From a virus (lineage: Duplodnaviria; Heunggongvirae; Uroviricota; Caudoviricetes): a DNA stretch of 64,000 bases. This document shows, in pieces, positions 14,178 through 62,688 of the stretch (positions are counted from its first letter, which is position 1; every line of letters begins with the position of its first letter). The DNA lies in IMG/VR virus record IMGVR_UViG_2541047873_000001, one strand, 5' to 3'. The position numbers and the translations under genes were made by a program. The notes under the pieces were generated by a model. The model saw only the letters and a list, made by a program, of their open reading frames with translations, did no database searches and was not told the DNA's origin.

Positions 14178-14210
14178 TATGTTAGAAAATTAAATTGATG
14201 TTTCTAATCA
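14178..14210. promoter_or_regulatory. Bipartite operator upstream of the icd-ant locus
   Basis: tatgttagaaaatt..N..tttctaatca inverted half-sites; a further weak half-site at 14269-14277. Confidence 0.55.
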
Positions 14211-14284: not shown

Positions 14285-14520
14285 TTATATTCATGCCGTC
14301 GTAGCAAATTCTGCGACCAGGTTTGACAGCCTGAATACTTACGCGGACAACCGCACATTTCCGATATTGCGGTATTTTTGTGTCCGTAAAACCACGTTAC
14401 GCCCGAATTATGGTGGGGCGTGATGGGGAGGCTTCGGCCTGCTGGTTTCGTAAGTGCCAGTCTGTCAACCCTGTCACGTCCTGCCACCTGTTTGACAGCG
14501 GGTCGCAGGTTGTTTATCAA
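14285..14520 (+). ncRNA. Candidate C4-like antisense RNA or immI leader (approximate bounds)
   Basis: ORF-free leader before icd with a UUCG-loop hairpin (gaggcttcggcctg) and repeated ttgacag / ctgtcaa complementary elements, resembling the P1 c4-icd-ant layout. Confidence 0.3.
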
Positions 14521-23906: not shown

Positions 23907-24080
23907 AAATAACAAGTTGGGTAAATGACATACAATTTACCCGGCTTGTTGACCCGCATCACCATTTACTCTAAAAACAAGTCCGACCTGTTGCATCCGC
24001 CTATCTCTTCAGTAGTATTCCCCTCGGTTTTGATAAAACTAACGCTCTTGTTATTATCGTGTTCATGATTTCAGGAAGTT

Positions 24081-24094
24081 TGTGTTAGAAATTT
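24081..24094. promoter_or_regulatory. Operator-like site (TGTGTTAGAAATTT)
   Basis: Reverse-orientation copy of the dispersed motif, overlapping the start region of the VRR-NUC gene. Confidence 0.5.
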
Positions 24095-24553: not shown

Positions 24554-24754
24554 TTGCGTTTACTTAACGTGGCTGAACTTATCCCTGCCGGTGCTAACGT
24601 TGTTGCTCGTCGCTGCTCATGGCCTCATTCTTTCTGTATAGAGCTTAAAAAGATGGATGATGGGGCATTAGAAGCCCGAAACATAGTTACCGGCGACAAG
24701 GTATGCATTACCCCGGAAAGCGCGAAAGCCAATGATTGGGAGTTTGTTCATTGA
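24554..24754 (+). CDS. Small DUF2829-like (Tad2-like) protein
   Basis: 66 aa, AELIPAGANVVARRCSW...AKANDWEFV; TTG start with GGAG RBS (GTG at 24569 is an alternative). Confidence 0.4.
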   Translation: MRLLNVAELIPAGANVVARRCSWPHSFCIELKKMDDGALEARNIVTGDKVCITPESAKANDWEFVH

Positions 24755-25062
24755 GCAGAAAACACCACGTAAATCTGACGTTTGCTGATGACGCCGGAAG
24801 AACCAGAAGCATAACCATGAAAGTTGCTTCCAGGAAAGTAACCGCGCCACTTATACGAGAGGCCGTAAGTGAACTTGATATGAGTGAGAATGCAGCTCTG
24901 TTATCGGTAAGCTGGCTGGGGAAAATGACGGATCAGGAATACTCGGATGGTATACCCCACGGTGAGCGGCAGATAGTAAAGCGCGCGTTTAGAATTTCAG
25001 AGGTAGTTGTCGTACTGATAGCTTTGATTTATATGGCATACATGCTACTCCAACACGTCTAA
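24736..25062 (+). CDS. Hypothetical protein with C-terminal TM anchor
   Basis: 108 aa; C-terminal VVVLIALIYMAYMLL hydrophobic helix. Confidence 0.35.
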   Translation: MGVCSLSRKHHVNLTFADDAGRTRSITMKVASRKVTAPLIREAVSELDMSENAALLSVSWLGKMTDQEYSDGIPHGERQIVKRAFRISEVVVVLIALIYMAYMLLQHV

Positions 25063-25073
25063 ACGGTCATAAA

Positions 25074-25097
25074 CCCGCCAGTTGGCGGGTTTTTTTG
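25074..25097 (+). terminator. Rho-independent terminator
   Basis: cccgccagttggcggg hairpin plus a T8 run. Confidence 0.7.
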
Positions 25098-25135
25098 TTG
25101 CCTGAGTCTTTTTATTGAAATTGCATACTAATAAA

Positions 25136-25153
25136 ATATGTTAGAAAACTAAT
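25136..25153. promoter_or_regulatory. Operator-like site (ATGTTAGAAAACT)
   Basis: Motif copy ~20 bp upstream of the 402-aa gene. Confidence 0.45.
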
Positions 25154-25172
25154 TTCAAGAAAGGGAACAAAC

Positions 25173-26381
25173 ATGAGTCAGCAAGTAGAATCATCAAGCC
25201 TGGAGATCATCTCAACCGCAATTGAAACGCTGCGGACACAAATCGCGCTTATACAGAAACGAAATCCGGGCGATGACCTGTCAAAGCGACTGCATGAGAG
25301 CGTCATTGCCACTACAGATAACCTGGTGGCGGAAATCAACCAGCTCCTTGATGATGGGGCAGTTGATTACAATAAGCTGGTGGATCAGTTTGAGGAATAT
25401 CAGCAAGCCGTTAATGATGGCTTGATCCGTTTTTCTCAAGTCACTGGTGTATCAGCGACAGTTGAAAGCCTGGGGGATGCAGTTAATCAATTTGCCGCGA
25501 ATATGCGTAATGAGATCGGCAATCTGGAGGCGCGTCTTGAGCAGGCAAATACACTGCGCAAATCTGCTGAAGTCGATTTGAGTCGTTACAAAAAAGACTA
25601 TCCGCCAAGCCTGACAAAACGACTGGATGTTGCGGAGAAAGATAACCGCACGCTGAAAAGAGAGCGTCGGGAACTAAAAGAGCGTTTAACCAAGCTAAAT
25701 CAGCAATGCGTTGAGTATCAAGGCGAACTCGTCACACTGCGTAAAAAGTTAGCAGCGGCGCAGAGCATTATTGAAACATTGAAACGAGAGTGCTCAGAGC
25801 TTGGTCATGATCTGAATCGCGCCTGTGGCATGGGGCAAAGGCCAGAGACATTCCCGCTAATGTATGACGGAAGAGAAGCTATTGCCTATATCCATGAGTT
25901 TCCGCATGGTCTGGTCGCGGAGACTGGGCAACGTGGCGAAGCGTTGCTGACGGCAAATTACCATCAGCAAATCAGAACCAGCCGCCTGCTGACGATGGAT
26001 GTGATCCCGTCAGTATGGGGAACGCCGCTTTACTACCGAATTCCTGGCTTCGAAACTGACTGGAATACCGACATAGACGAATGTCTGGCAGATAAAATTA
26101 TGGCGTACCTTGAAACGGATTTTCCACGCTTGCATCGCCGGATTATGGACTCTAAGGATGCACCGATCGACGAATTGAAAATGCGTCCAGAGACGTTGGA
26201 GGCAATCAAGCAGACTGAGTTTGATACAGTGTTCAGTGTGGCCTGCATTCCAAGCAGCTTTCATGAAAGCATTCCGTTCATGCAGGGCGATCGCCGTCAG
26301 GAAATAATTGATGCTTGCCGGGTATGGGCGAACGAGTGGGATAAGAAGAACGGTGGAGTTGAAAATCTTTACGGGAAATAA
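25173..26381 (+). CDS. Coiled-coil protein of unknown function, bracketed by operator sites
   Basis: 402 aa; long coiled coil (residues ~100-210) and a globular C-terminus; good RBS. Confidence 0.5.
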   Translation: MSQQVESSSLEIISTAIETLRTQIALIQKRNPGDDLSKRLHESVIATTDNLVAEINQLLDDGAVDYNKLVDQFEEYQQAVNDGLIRFSQVTGVSATVESLGDAVNQFAANMRNEIGNLEARLEQANTLRKSAEVDLSRYKKDYPPSLTKRLDVAEKDNRTLKRERRELKERLTKLNQQCVEYQGELVTLRKKLAAAQSIIETLKRECSELGHDLNRACGMGQRPETFPLMYDGREAIAYIHEFPHGLVAETGQRGEALLTANYHQQIRTSRLLTMDVIPSVWGTPLYYRIPGFETDWNTDIDECLADKIMAYLETDFPRLHRRIMDSKDAPIDELKMRPETLEAIKQTEFDTVFSVACIPSSFHESIPFMQGDRRQEIIDACRVWANEWDKKNGGVENLYGK

Positions 26382-26415
26382 TGTGTTAGAAAATTAAAAT
26401 TGTTTTTCTAACATA
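26382..26415. promoter_or_regulatory. Palindromic operator pair
   Basis: tgtgttagaaaattaaaattgtttttctaacata: perfect inverted half-sites gttagaaaa / ttttctaac. Confidence 0.6.
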
Positions 26416-26532
26416 TTGATTATGTAGTTAACTTAACATAGAATTTTTCGTGCTGGTGGGGAGCTTCCCATGTCGCTTGCGGGTTTGATAGTCACTTCAT
26501 TGTCTTTCCCCACCAGCATCAAACAATTTTAA

Positions 26533-26546
26533 GTGTTAGAAAGTAA
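26533..26546. promoter_or_regulatory. Operator-like half-site (GTGTTAGAAAGT)
   Basis: Motif copy 120 bp downstream of the palindromic pair. Confidence 0.4.
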
Positions 26547-27726
26547 ATTTTAAGGTAAGGGAAAGCTCCGGCACCGTGCAAATACATGCCCGGCAGGTTT
26601 AGTGCGTAAAGTGGTTTCAGCGAGAGCATTTTACGGAGTAAACGACAGTGACTTGAGCCACGGAAGGTCTTTTTATGGTGTTCATTGATGATGATCTGGC
26701 AGTGAGTATGTTAAGTGGGCCAGGCTGCATCGGGTCATCATCAGTGCACATCCTCAACGTTAAGGAGGCGCAGAGTTGGGTTTTCCTCTTATTTTGCTGA
26801 CTCTGAGTCTCCTTAACGTTGCGGTAATGCACCTATGCGGATGTGGCCTTGCATTGTGTCTTGAAAGAATGGGGTAAGGCCGGGGATATTCCCAGGGGGA
26901 GGCACCCCCGCTGCAACGAACAGCCATAGACGGCAGTCGAGTGATGAAAACGTGAAAAGACTTTAAACCTCGTTACGGCTGGCGTGGCAAACGCGACAAC
27001 CGGGATAGGACGGTGACGGGCGGAGAGAGAGCCGCTTCAAGATAAAAGCCGACTATGGATTCCTTTCTGCGGGCCTTTGAAAGTGAATCTTGCTCAGGCA
27101 GTCGGCTTTTATGTTGATACGTAGCGATAACCGCGACAGGCGCGGCGGTAAGTATGGCGGGGTTATTCCTTCCCCGTTGAGGACACCGAGTTGCCAGGTT
27201 GACCATACGCCTAAGTGGCAATACCGCGAGTGGGATATTTGCCCACCTTCGGGTGGGTGTTTTTTCAGTGTTTTCGTCATGGTTAGCGACTTTGCGGCGG
27301 TTTAGAACCCGACCATTAAAGTAAATGCAAACGATGATCTGATGATGGTAGCGGCCTAAGAAGCCTGACGCCACGGGGTATGAGTCGTCCCCCGTCAAAA
27401 AATCGACCGCAGAGTGTCCCCGTCTGTGTATTAGGGAACGGGGAGGCATAACAGGCAAGGGCGCTGGTGTGATTAACCAGATGAATGAGAAGGGTCAGGT
27501 CTTTCTGGTCAGCGCCCTTACCTGTTACGTCCCTCCCGCGTAACAGCCATTGGTTAATGGCTTTCTGGGATAATGTCTTGTAACGGGTATATCCCGTCAT
27601 GCTGAAGGCGCTAATCACGCTGGAAGCCAGGGTTATGCATCCCCTGTTACCGAATTGCAGCCAGGGCGCGGTGCGCCGAAAAGCATACGGAGGTGGAAGC
27701 CCTCGCCGGAGACGTACCCGGCAAGT

Positions 27727-27803
27727 GATGGTGTAGCTCAGTAGGATAGAGCAGCAGCCTTCTAAGCTGTCGGTCGGTGGTTCGAATCCACCCACCATCG
27801 CCA
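27727..27803 (+). tRNA. tRNA-Arg (anticodon UCU)
   Basis: Hand-folded cloverleaf: acceptor gatggtg/caccatc, D arm gctc/gagc, anticodon loop cuUCUaa, T loop ggtgg-ttcgaat-ccacc, encoded CCA. Confidence 0.8.
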
Positions 27804-27808
27804 ATTTA

Positions 27809-27895
27809 GGGGAGTTAGTCCGTAGGGGTAGCGGGGTAGACTGTAAATCTACTGTCATTGCGACTCGGATGGTTCGACTCCATCACTCCCCACCA
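27809..27895 (+). tRNA. tRNA-Tyr (anticodon GUA), long variable arm
   Basis: Acceptor ggggagt/actcccc, anticodon arm gtaga-cuGUAaa-tctac, long variable arm, T arm gatgg-ttcgact-ccatc, CCA; resembles E. coli tRNA-Tyr. Confidence 0.7.
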
Positions 27896-27899
27896 AATT

Positions 27900-27975
27900 G
27901 CCGGTTTAGCTCAGTTGGTAGAGCGCCTGCCTTGTAAGCAGGATGTCAGCGGTTCGAGTCCGTTAACCGGCACCA
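27900..27975 (+). tRNA. tRNA-Thr (anticodon UGU)
   Basis: Acceptor gccggtt/aaccggc, D loop agctcagttggtagagc, anticodon arm cctgc-cuUGUaa-gcagg, T loop ttcgagt, CCA. Confidence 0.85.
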
Positions 27976-27983
27976 ACACAACA

Positions 27984-28056
27984 GGTAAGGGTATTTTGCG
28001 ACGTCGGAGATCGCCGAGCTTGGCAGAGGGTTCGAATCCCTACGAAGTACCCTTAC
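27984..28056 (+). other. tRNA-like element or pseudo-tRNA (T arm plus 10-bp terminal stem; no anticodon arm, no CCA)
   Basis: ggtaagggta...tacccttacc terminal helix encloses a gggttcgaatccc T-arm-like hairpin; too short for a complete tRNA. Confidence 0.25.
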
Positions 28057-28163
28057 CGTTGTGATGAATGCACAGGCTGATGTGCCGCAACTACAGTAGT
28101 GCGCGCTTTGCGGGGCTTGCTACAACCCTGTGTCGGAGTTCAGCACCGACCATCACAATCACT

Positions 28164-28250
28164 GGAGAGTAGGGAGCATGGTGCTCAAGCGGTCTTGAAA
28201 ACCGTCCCATTGCGCAAGCGATGATGGTTCGATTCCATTACTCTCCGCCA
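28164..28250 (+). tRNA. tRNA-Ser (anticodon UGA), type II
   Basis: Acceptor ggagagt/actctcc, anticodon arm gcggt-cuUGAaa-accgt as in E. coli tRNA-Ser(UGA), long variable arm, T loop ttcgatt, CCA. Confidence 0.7.
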
Positions 28251-28679
28251 GCGCAACGTTAAGAGTATTTGGCTAATTAAGCGAATGCCGGAAGCAGAAC
28301 CGGATCACCAAATGCGTACAGGCGTCATCGCCGCCCAGTCAGCCAAATGCTCTTACCATTGCGGTGAATGCGGCTAAGCGCACGCGGAACAGTTAAAACA
28401 GTAAAGGTGGTCTTTTTACTGGCGTAACGAGAATCCATAAGTGATCCGGCGTTAATTGTTAACTGGTTAACGTCACCGGGAGGCACCCGGCACCGCAACC
28501 TAACAGCAATGGCGTTTTGTCTTAAAAGGTGGCTGCAAGTGATGGATTTTTGGGCGTTTGCCGATAAAAACCCGGAGTGGACATTATTGTTTCTGCTGGT
28601 GGTTGCATACGGGGTAGAGCAAGCGGCAAAAGCCTTACGCGGTTCTGGCAAAAAGCGTAAGCGTAATTAACAGTAATCT

Positions 28680-28755
28680 GGCCCTTTAGCTCAGTGGTTA
28701 GAGCGGGCGACTCATAATCGCACGGTCACCGGTTCAAGTCCGGTAGGGGCCACCA
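28680..28755 (+). tRNA. tRNA with CAU anticodon, most like tRNA-Ile2 (AUA-decoding); elongator Met not excluded
   Basis: Near-complete resemblance to E. coli ileX-type tRNA as I recall it (GGCCCUUUAGCUCAGUGGUUAGAGC...CUCAUAAUCGC...GGUUCAAGUCC...GGGGCCACCA). Confidence 0.8.
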
Positions 28756-30163: not shown

Positions 30164-30194
30164 TGTTAGCAAATTGATATTAATTTTCTAATAC
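30163..30194. promoter_or_regulatory. Bipartite operator upstream of the lpa-like/pac operon
   Basis: gtgttagcaaattgatattaattttctaata inverted half-sites. Confidence 0.5.
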
Positions 30195-34607: not shown

Positions 34608-34623
34608 TATTCCTACTCGATTT

Positions 34624-34637
34624 AGTTTTCTAACATA
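34624..34637. promoter_or_regulatory. Operator-like site (AGTTTTCTAACATA)
   Basis: Motif copy 17 bp upstream of the candidate repressor start. Confidence 0.5.
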
Positions 34638-45856: not shown

Positions 45857-45888
45857 ATGTTAGAAAATTAAAATCAATATTCTAACAC
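45857..45888. promoter_or_regulatory. Bipartite operator
   Basis: atgttagaaaattaaaatcaatattctaaca inverted half-sites, intergenic. Confidence 0.55.
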
Positions 45889-50904: not shown

Positions 50905-50938
50905 GTGTTAGAAAATCAATTTTGATTTTCTAACACAT
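50905..50938. promoter_or_regulatory. 34-bp palindromic operator between divergent operons
   Basis: tgtgttagaaaatcaa-tt-ttgattttctaacaca: perfect 16-bp inverted repeat. Confidence 0.65.
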
Positions 50939-52055: not shown

Positions 52056-52160
52056 GAAAACACACAGTTGCGCCCTGGCATTATCGTGGGGTATATTTCT
52101 ACGGCACCTTAGAAAAACGGGTGCCGGGATTGGAACCCCGGATAATGCAAAAGGCGACAC

Positions 52161-52184
52161 AGACGCCGAAAGCGTCTTTTTTTG
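52161..52184 (+). terminator. Rho-independent terminator
   Basis: agacgccgaaagcgtct hairpin plus a T7 run. Confidence 0.6.
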
Positions 52185-52199
52185 TGTCATGCCATCGCA

Positions 52200-52345
52200 C
52201 AGCCATGCGTAGCGTTTAGCTCAGAGATCAATGGTAGTGCTGGCTGGGCTGCCGAAAGGCAGGCCGGTTCCCTTTTGCGCCGGTAGTTCCAACCCAGTCA
52301 GTGCTACCGCCATTGAGATTGGAACCTCACGCGGTAGCTCCTTAA
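52200..52345 (+). ncRNA. Candidate C4-like antisense RNA or immI leader, second copy (approximate bounds)
   Basis: GAAA-loop hairpin ggctgccgaaaggcagcc-like and elements complementary to the icd RBS region (ggaggctgcc); same architecture as 14285..14520. Confidence 0.3.
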
Positions 52346-62654: not shown

Positions 62655-62688
62655 GTATTAGATAATTGAGTTTTATTTTCTAACACAG
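62655..62688. promoter_or_regulatory. Bipartite operator upstream of rdgC
   Basis: gtattagataattgagttttattttctaacacag, with a degenerate left half-site. Confidence 0.5.

Follow-up and report, generated by a model that had tools for sequence, protein, structure and literature searches.

A pmgS homologue under predicted C1-type repressor control in a D6-like phage-plasmid, a candidate accessory of phage DNA transactions

What kind of protein does a temperate phage encode in a gene with operator-like repeats on both sides? The question is posed by an open reading frame (ORF) of 402 amino acids (aa) at 25173-26381 in a 64,000-nucleotide stretch (hereafter the window) of the Caudoviricetes record IMGVR_UViG_2541047873_000001 from IMG/VR. 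An initial annotation had described it as an unknown coiled-coil protein without a family match, isolated by an upstream terminator, held under tight repressor control by operators on either side and probably harmful in the lysogen. Here we identify the ORF as a pmgS homologue and assign a probability of about 0.55 to the composite reading that this D6-type pmgS is an early, repressor-controlled gene whose product is an accessory of DNA transactions carrying a helix-hairpin-helix (HhH)2 module, and not a capsid scaffold or sheath protein. Nucleotide similarity and the local gene order mark the window as a D6-like phage-plasmid of Escherichia coli within the P1 family. Escherichia phage D6 is 87% identical in DNA to the 2.1 kb around the ORF, the E. 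coli plasmid NZ_LR890273 (92.8 kb) is 99.8% identical over a 5-kb stretch of the window, and 97 plasmid records, nearly all non-mobilisable, hold at least 80% of that 5-kb region, with 1116 sharing some part of it. The 90% protein cluster of the window PmgS comprises 922 members.

The family of the protein was readily identified. The ORF, which starts at ATG and encodes long helices, matches PHROG 1660 ('PmgS-like') at E 3.8e-143, with residues 1-401 aligned to profile positions 1-404 of 405. It shares 94% aa identity with orf9 of phage D6 (YP_009914686, 'PmgS-like' or 'putative prohead scaffolding protein'), and aligns colinearly over its full length with P1 PmgS (22% identity, E 2e-13, residues 2-395 against 7-415), to which it is linked by intermediate homologues. 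By these profile and pairwise matches the ORF is almost certainly a PmgS family member and not an orphan. The family is small, with 86 representatives at E <= 0.001 among 1.84 billion proteins. Searches of Pfam, NCBIfam and PADLOC with the window protein returned only sub-threshold coiled-coil matches. Those to ATG17, ERM, DivIVA, SMC, Rad50, JetC and LmuB were rejected as compositional, and myosin also matched below threshold through the coiled coil; SMC, Rad50, JetC and LmuB, which have ABC ATPase heads, aligned through coiled-coil stretches only, at 14-27 bits against cut-offs of several hundred. Nothing beyond coiled-coil noise (haemagglutinin and CREB) came up when the PDB was searched with the single sequence, two single-protein scans for related loci found nothing, and the match to Pfam Phage_GPO was weak and sub-threshold (E 0.19).

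Database labels for the family are structural: the D6 GenBank record speaks of a prohead scaffold, PHROGs of 'head morphogenesis' and the P7 annotation of 'sheath contraction' (ShtB), and elsewhere the term is 'putative morphogenetic'. An in-frame deletion of P1 pmgS is viable and the gene lies outside the five essential pmg genes; the 24 mutants other than those five, with the pmgS deletion among them, showed no plaquing or antirestriction defect (PMC9024508). It was likewise scored non-essential by CRISPR interference (CRISPRi; PMC10695390). The P1 virion proteome paper contains no mention of PmgS in its main text or tables, and our literature search found no paper giving it a function. For these reasons the structural labels are unsupported, and the gene described here is a new member of a known but functionally unassigned family.

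The repeats around pmgS belong to a set distributed over the whole window. Over the 64 kb, the 9-mer TGTTAGAAA is found at 14 places where 0.58 would be expected, a count reached by none of 100 shuffled sequences. Alignment of the 14 copies revealed information over about 17 bp, with the consensus TGTTAGAAAATTAAwwT. With up to three mismatches, the 17-mer TGTTAGAAAATTAAWWT has 16 sites in the window where 1.1 are expected, again equalled in none of 100 shuffles. In the 19 kb of D6 examined, the 17-mer is present five times against 0.24 expected, at five orthologous places. The window sites are either single or arranged as two inverted 17-mers overlapping by 4 bp into a 30-bp unit, and every site listed in Table 1 lies between ORFs.

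The initial annotation had taken these repeats for repressor operators, and comparison with P1 bears this out. P1 C1 operators are 17-bp asymmetric sites, either monovalent or in overlapping bivalent pairs, which is the architecture found in the window. The GenBank record of P1 lists C1 operators at matching places, namely Oc1, Olpa, Oppp, Odmt (uhr-hrdC-dmt), Obanab and OpmgRa/b; the P1 features retrieved cover these sites, and those of ref and immI (ant) lie outside the comparison. Because the window sites precede homologues of c1, lpa, ref, ppp/pdcB, hrdC and ant, as in the P1 C1 regulon, they are very probably the operators of a D6-type C1 repressor. A C1 homologue is encoded in the window (21% identity to P1 C1, colinear, E 1e-7), corresponding to D6 orf1, annotated as 'prophage repressor', and presumably binds these sites. 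The consensus itself differs from that of P1 C1, ATTGCTCTAATAAATTT, which the window sites fail to match, and paired sites overlap by 4 bp in the window versus 6 bp in P1. The distinct operator sequence fits a repressor only 21% identical to its P1 counterpart.

Upstream of pmgS, the signals proposed in the initial annotation are present. The terminator, AAACCCGCCA-GT-TGGCGGGTTT, forms a perfect G+C-rich stem of 10 bp with a 2-nt loop, followed by the T-run TTTTTTTGTT, and its stem is kept in D6. The operator core TGTTAGAAA begins at 25139, 3 nt after the position first given for it (25136), and heads a complete 17-mer. This operator covers the -10 and start region of a predicted sigma-70 promoter that scored 9/12 in a consensus scan, and a Shine-Dalgarno sequence, AGGGA, stands 6 nt before the ATG. 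A block of about 32 nt holding the -10 and the operator is shared with D6 (30 of 32 positions identical, with one perfect run of 29 nt), and its flanks diverge. The site is functionally analogous to P1 OpmgRa/b (Op86a,b), whose record reads 'controls expression of pmgR and pmgS' and which corresponds to Op(sht a/b) of P7. The gene order matches that of P1 pmgR-pmgS and P7 shtA-shtB, with repressor operators before the unit, but the window lacks pap after pmgS, and its terminator splits pmgR from pmgS, which has an operator and a predicted promoter of its own. Two further sequences were noted in this region. Directly 5' of the operator, ATTGCATACTAATAAAAT (25120-25137) resembles a P1 C1 operator (O26, ATTGCACTAATAATTTT) with one extra base; its ATTGCA part is not kept in D6, and it could be the remnant of a P1-type operator or a chance occurrence in AT-rich DNA. 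An inverted repeat around the promoter and operator (TTTATTGAAATT at 25111-25122 and AATTTCAAGAAA at 25151-25162, 11/12) is not kept in D6 and was set aside as probably due to chance.

The palindrome after the pmgS stop codon is equally real, with arms AATGTGTTAGAAAA (26380-26393) and TTTTCTAACATATT (26404-26417) matching at 13 of 14 positions and a perfect 10-bp core (TGTTAGAAAA/TTTTCTAACA) separated by a 10-bp spacer. In D6 only the left half is intact and the right arm is degenerate, indicating that perfect symmetry is not required. A predicted rightward promoter lies directly 3' of it (scan 9/12), both hexamers of which are kept in D6, and the sequence further downstream, at 27128-27805, is 86% identical to P1 68737-69426, the sequence immediately downstream of Obanab. 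On the strength of this conserved promoter and this similarity, the palindrome is assigned to the next early operon, and not to pmgS, as the D6-type counterpart of P1 Oban/Op72. The gene is therefore flanked by operators as first described, in that both sites exist, but the downstream one serves the next unit, and the arrangement amounts to two adjacent repressor-controlled units. Both the window operator and Obanab consist of two inverted, overlapping 17-bp sites before an early operon with a dicF-like region and tRNAs. They differ in span (30 bp in the window, 28 bp in P1) and in the place of the promoter, which is beside the operator in the window and inside it in P1.

Between the palindrome and the region shared with P1, about 715 bp (26414-27127) have no counterpart in P1, so that compared with the P1 ban leader the window has an extra leader carrying a hairpin and a further operator. 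Relative to D6, the hairpin stem shows compensatory changes (GGGGA/TCCCC versus GGGCG/CGCCC). It had no match in Rfam, which identified C4 RNAs elsewhere in the window, and it may be a leader or small RNA of the tRNA operon. The upstream operator block, downstream promoter, hairpin and second operator are all shared with D6, in which the post-stop site is monovalent, the tRNAs lie on the other strand relative to pmgS (on the + strand in the window) and tciA/B are present. The scan detected no terminator separating the pmgS stop from the 26416-26444 promoter, so that read-through into the next unit is possible in lytic growth. A candidate leftward promoter (26553-26526) that overlaps the 26534 operator and would be a conceivable source of RNA antisense to pmgS was rejected since its -10 is not kept in D6 and it probably arose by chance. 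Within the tRNA region, a sub-threshold match to STnc100 was observed at 28360-28497.

Remote homology and structure prediction, which were among the checks suggested in the initial annotation, were also informative about the protein itself. An AlphaFold2 (AF2) model built on 53 sequences (mean predicted local distance difference test, pLDDT, 85.5) replaced an earlier model from 10 close homologues that was poor at residues 213-300. It comprises a long helical N-terminal half, a central beta domain and a helical C-terminus. The beta domain carries the best-conserved motifs of the family (YIH..P.GL, H.QIRT and W.xP), and no match for its fold was found. For the C-terminus, the family profile matches 1doq at 8.8e-7 and 1b22 at 1.6e-6, Pfam HHH_5 and RNA_pol_A_CTD match five to six PmgS members, and the model superposes on the C-terminal domain of the RNA polymerase (RNAP) alpha subunit (alpha-CTD) at 2 A over about 60 residues. 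The RAD51 N-domain and Brr2 match equally well. As modeled, the PmgS C-terminus is a previously unremarked (HhH)2 module of the type of alpha-CTD, the RAD51 N-domain and the NusA acidic repeat (AR). It has the same five-helix, two-hairpin fold as RNAP alpha-CTD, the RAD51/DMC1 N-domain, NusA AR1/AR2 and the Brr2 Sec63 HhH, but differs from these in being joined to a coiled coil and a novel beta domain, and in a second hairpin that is degenerate in the D6 clade.

Distant homologues, those beyond P1 and D6, are encoded in early regions. A Plesiomonas prophage has the order exoVIII(DUF3799)-RecT-PmgS-like, a short contig has RecT-PmgS-like followed by an integrase, Pseudomonas phage 15b has RecT-MuGam-PmgS-like (with an adhesin/tail-like ORF about 1.8 kb downstream), and Aeromonas phiARM81mr has exoVIII-RecT-int-x-PmgS-like-x-Dam. 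Vibrio phages and a Vibrio prophage show YfdP-DUF2303-PmgS-like-methyltransferase, and in a Vibrio element of 80 kb the gene adjoins an Rv2179c-like exonuclease, with TrfA and RdgC nearby. In one clade, 29 of 36 IMG/VR loci have RecT, of two types, 1-3.5 kb upstream on the same strand. PmgS-like genes were found among head or tail genes in no context examined outside P1 and D6.

Taken together, the (HhH)2 module, the predicted early, repressor-controlled expression and the linkage to RecT, Exo and Gam argue for refiling PmgS as a probable early DNA-transaction factor. In the mechanism we propose, a C1-type repressor would keep pmgS silent in the prophage through the site at 25139-25155, which overlaps a weak sigma-70 promoter at its -10 and start, and the upstream terminator would make pmgS a small early transcription unit of its own. 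The bivalent operator after the stop would govern the following early unit, with its promoter, structured leader, dicF-like region and five tRNAs. The N-terminal half of the protein presumably oligomerises, followed by the family-specific beta domain and the (HhH)2 module, which would dock on DNA or on a DNA-bound partner. PmgS would thus be an early, non-essential accessory in recombination, DNA-end handling or replication of phage DNA. For this role taken by itself the chances are close to even, if slightly short of it.

Several observations weigh against this proposal. The pmgS promoter is weak (9/12) and its -35 is not kept in D6, for which reason it remains a prediction only. In the second hairpin of the (HhH)2 module, the D6 clade has PFMQGD, with a single Gly, where distant members keep KG[ILMF]G. 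The net charge of the module is -5, and the whole family is acidic, with a median pI of 5.4. With an acidic module and a lost GhG hairpin, direct DNA binding is not assured; NusA AR domains bind proteins, and by analogy the module may dock on protein rather than DNA. As to context, the 36 IMG/VR loci are mutually related and are thus not 36 independent observations, the neighbors in P1 and D6 are pmgR and dar genes and not RecT, and a shared early-operon neighborhood is weak evidence of shared function.

Table 1. Positions of the genes, domains, signals and operators discussed, given in window coordinates except for the last gene row, which refers to loci of other phages.
Feature	Position	Strand	Details
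pmgS homologue, 402 aa	25173..26381	+	ATG start
N-terminal long-helix/coiled-coil region, aa 6-217	25188..25823	+	AF2 helices 6-30, 35-91, 100-141, 145-217
Central beta domain, aa 226-290	25848..26042	+	AF2 strands, pLDDT 73-92
C-terminal (HhH)2/RNAP alpha-CTD-like domain, aa ~329-393	26157..26351	+	
Intrinsic terminator closing the upstream pmgM/pmgR-like unit	25071..25099	+	Stem 25071-25092
Predicted sigma-70 promoter of pmgS	25115..25142	+	TTGAAA (25115), 16 nt, TATGTT (25137-25142)
Monovalent operator before pmgS	25139-25155	+	TGTTAGAAAACTAATTT, one mismatch to the 17-bp consensus
Bivalent operator after the pmgS stop	26384-26413		Inverted 17-mers 26384-26400 (+) and 26397-26413 (-), 4-bp overlap
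Predicted rightward promoter of the next unit	26416..26444	+	TTGATT, 17 nt, TAGAAT
Leader hairpin of the next unit	26446..26523	+	17-nt arms, minimum free energy -32 kcal/mol, z = -2.45
Monovalent operator downstream of the next-unit promoter	26534-26550	+	Two mismatches; 9-bp core kept in D6
P1 ban-operon leader homologue (dicF-like region, first tRNA)	27128..27805	+	86% identical to P1 68737-69426
Five tRNA genes	27727-28755	+	Arg-TCT, Tyr-GTA, Thr-TGT, Ser-TGA, CAT anticodon
Operator pair upstream of the lpa homologue	30164-30193		30-bp geometry
c1 repressor homologue, 345 aa	33573..34607	-	PHROG 1678
Operator 11 nt upstream of the c1-homologue ATG	34619-34635		
Operator pair between ppp-like and pdcB-like genes	45858-45887		30-bp geometry
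Operator pair upstream of the ref homologue	50906-50935		30-bp geometry
Operator upstream of the hrdC/RdgC-like gene	62669-62685		
Bivalent operator upstream of C4 antisense RNA and ant/kilA-like gene	14180-14209		C4 at 14406-14491
C4-related features, two immI-type regions	14285-14337, 14406-14491, 52104-52182, 52227-52314		Rfam
Gene of ~140-160 aa downstream of PmgS-like genes in non-P1 phages	L011 6197-6673; L010 6218-6673; L012 6161-6586		Also in 33/36 loci L014-L049

In D6 the local gene order is annotated as darB-like, ulx-like, orf13, pmgM-like, orf11, pmgR-like, pmgS-like, tRNAs, lpa, pacA, pacB and c1. The window has darB, ulx, pmgM and pmgR upstream of pmgS and the tRNA leader downstream, and its ORF at 24736-25062, directly upstream of pmgS, occupies the place of D6 orf10 (pmgR-like). 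The position of pmgS downstream of pmgR, as in P1-like genomes, holds here as well.

Control by a repressor could also be indicative of a host-directed function, toxic or anti-defense, silenced in the lysogen, for instance that of an acidic coiled-coil decoy blocking RecBCD or a different nuclease in the manner of lambda Gam. The acidic, coiled-coil nature of PmgS would suit such a decoy, as would its place beside Gam-like, Exo and RecT genes in other phages and behind the dar anti-restriction cluster in the window. Against this, deletion of P1 pmgS left antirestriction unchanged (PMC9024508), the protein matched no known anti-defense or defense family beyond coiled-coil noise, and many harmless genes share the same operators. 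We regard this function as unlikely, and nothing in the data speaks positively for a kil or anti-defense role. The inference of harm in the lysogen, drawn in the initial annotation from repressor control, does not follow, given that ref, ppp, hrdC and lpa belong to the regulon and that the P1 deletion shows neither a plaquing nor an antirestriction defect.

Taken at their word, the database labels would make PmgS a morphogenetic protein, a prohead scaffold or sheath component whose coiled coil templates assembly. The long coiled coil of the AF2 model agrees with them, as does the fixed place of the gene beside pmgR, which is needed for head completion in P1, a phage without an identified scaffold (PMC9024508). 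A scaffold should be essential, however, whereas P1 without pmgS plaques normally and CRISPRi scored the gene as non-essential. The predicted promoter is of an early, repressor-controlled type, the P1-type late promoter AAGTNACTT(8-11)TANNNT has no match in the window, and its AGTNACT core is neither enriched there (14 against 9.3 expected) nor present upstream of pmgS. PmgS also carries the (HhH)2 domain, and in siphovirus-type prophages its homologues occupy early or recombination regions and are far removed from head genes. With the scaffolds P22 gp8 and P2 gpO it has in common an elongated helical form and, in the window PmgS, the weak match to Phage_GPO; it differs from them in lying outside the head cluster without a late promoter, in its nucleic-acid-type domain and in the dispensability of the P1 homologue. 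A morphogenetic role is therefore quite unlikely.

The C-terminal module invites another interpretation, in which PmgS modulates transcription early in infection by mimicking or docking onto RNAP alpha-CTD, NusA or activators, redirecting host transcription. Alpha-CTD and the NusA acidic repeat are indeed its best matches in structure and sequence, and its charge resembles that of the NusA AR domains. The equal matches to the RAD51 N-domain and Brr2, on the other hand, show that the fold is not specific to transcription, and the neighborhoods point to recombination rather than to regulators, which makes this role very improbable.

That the TGTTAGAAA sites serve another factor, such as the late activator Lpa, and that pmgS is a late gene, has next to nothing to recommend it. 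In its favor, a short palindrome is also a component of late promoters in P1 (PMC10695390), and some sites lie near morphogenetic-looking genes (24083, 25139). The late box of P1, however, is one 9-bp palindrome placed at -22, and resembles neither a 17-bp asymmetric site nor a 30-bp pair. What follows the sites is c1, lpa itself, ref, hrdC, ppp and the c4/ant immunity region, exactly the P1 C1 regulon, and none was found before the large structural operons of the window.

The reading of PmgS as an early DNA-transaction accessory can be extended to the whole family, although in this form it becomes speculative. PmgS proteins would be an unrecognised accessory of the recombination or DNA-end modules of temperate phages, combining a coiled coil with an alpha-CTD/RAD51-N-like (HhH)2 module and encoded with RecT/Exo/Gam or YfdP-YfdQ genes. 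They might act together with a partner of about 150 aa found at most non-P1 loci, and in P1- and D6-type elements would work on incoming or replicating phage DNA right after loss of the repressor. More loosely still, the two operators bracketing pmgS, which lie 1.25 kb from each other, might allow C1 to loop out the gene, as in the autoregulation of P1 c1. The candidate partner is the gene of about 140-160 aa that immediately follows PmgS-like genes in phages other than P1, its start codon often overlapping the preceding stop, and that has no match in Pfam. It is missing in the window, D6 and P1. The P1 protein Pap, whose gene (at 2388-2894 of the P1 locus L003) adjoins pmgS and is annotated 'acid phosphatase', proved unrelated to it on comparison. 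Pap itself has an above cut-off match to Pfam HAD_PNKP (E 5e-12), the phosphatase domain of polynucleotide kinase-phosphatase, and this match suggests that it is a nucleic-acid end-healing enzyme encoded beside pmgS.

The regulation of pmgS as such is ordinary for this phage family, since C1 control of pmgR-pmgS was already annotated in P1 and P7. The D6-type operator consensus with its regulon map, the assignment of the palindrome to an Oban-like unit, and the argument from domain and context on function are what the present analysis adds. Current understanding is not overturned by these results. Homologues of PmgS occur in many D6-like phage-plasmids of E. coli, Klebsiella and Salmonella, and refiling the protein puts forward a concrete hypothesis on a gene to which P1 genetics has assigned no phenotype. 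The consensus and map define a D6-type immunity regulon, of use in annotation and in predicting hetero-immunity with P1.

Two minor features of the window deserve mention. Just upstream of the pmgM-like (VRR-NUC) ORF, a weak operator-like core (24083-24091) consists of TGTTAGAAA only, the rest of the 17-mer being unmatched, and is preceded by a good promoter-like site, TTGATA-16-TATTAT, at 24030-24057. Two genes for C4 antisense RNA also lie in the window, scoring 69.6 and 76.7 bits in Rfam. The first, with c4-a1b1 target sites nearby, follows a bivalent operator and lies ahead of the ant/kilA-like gene, while the second adjoins an isrK-like small RNA. The element thus carries two immI-type immunity regions.

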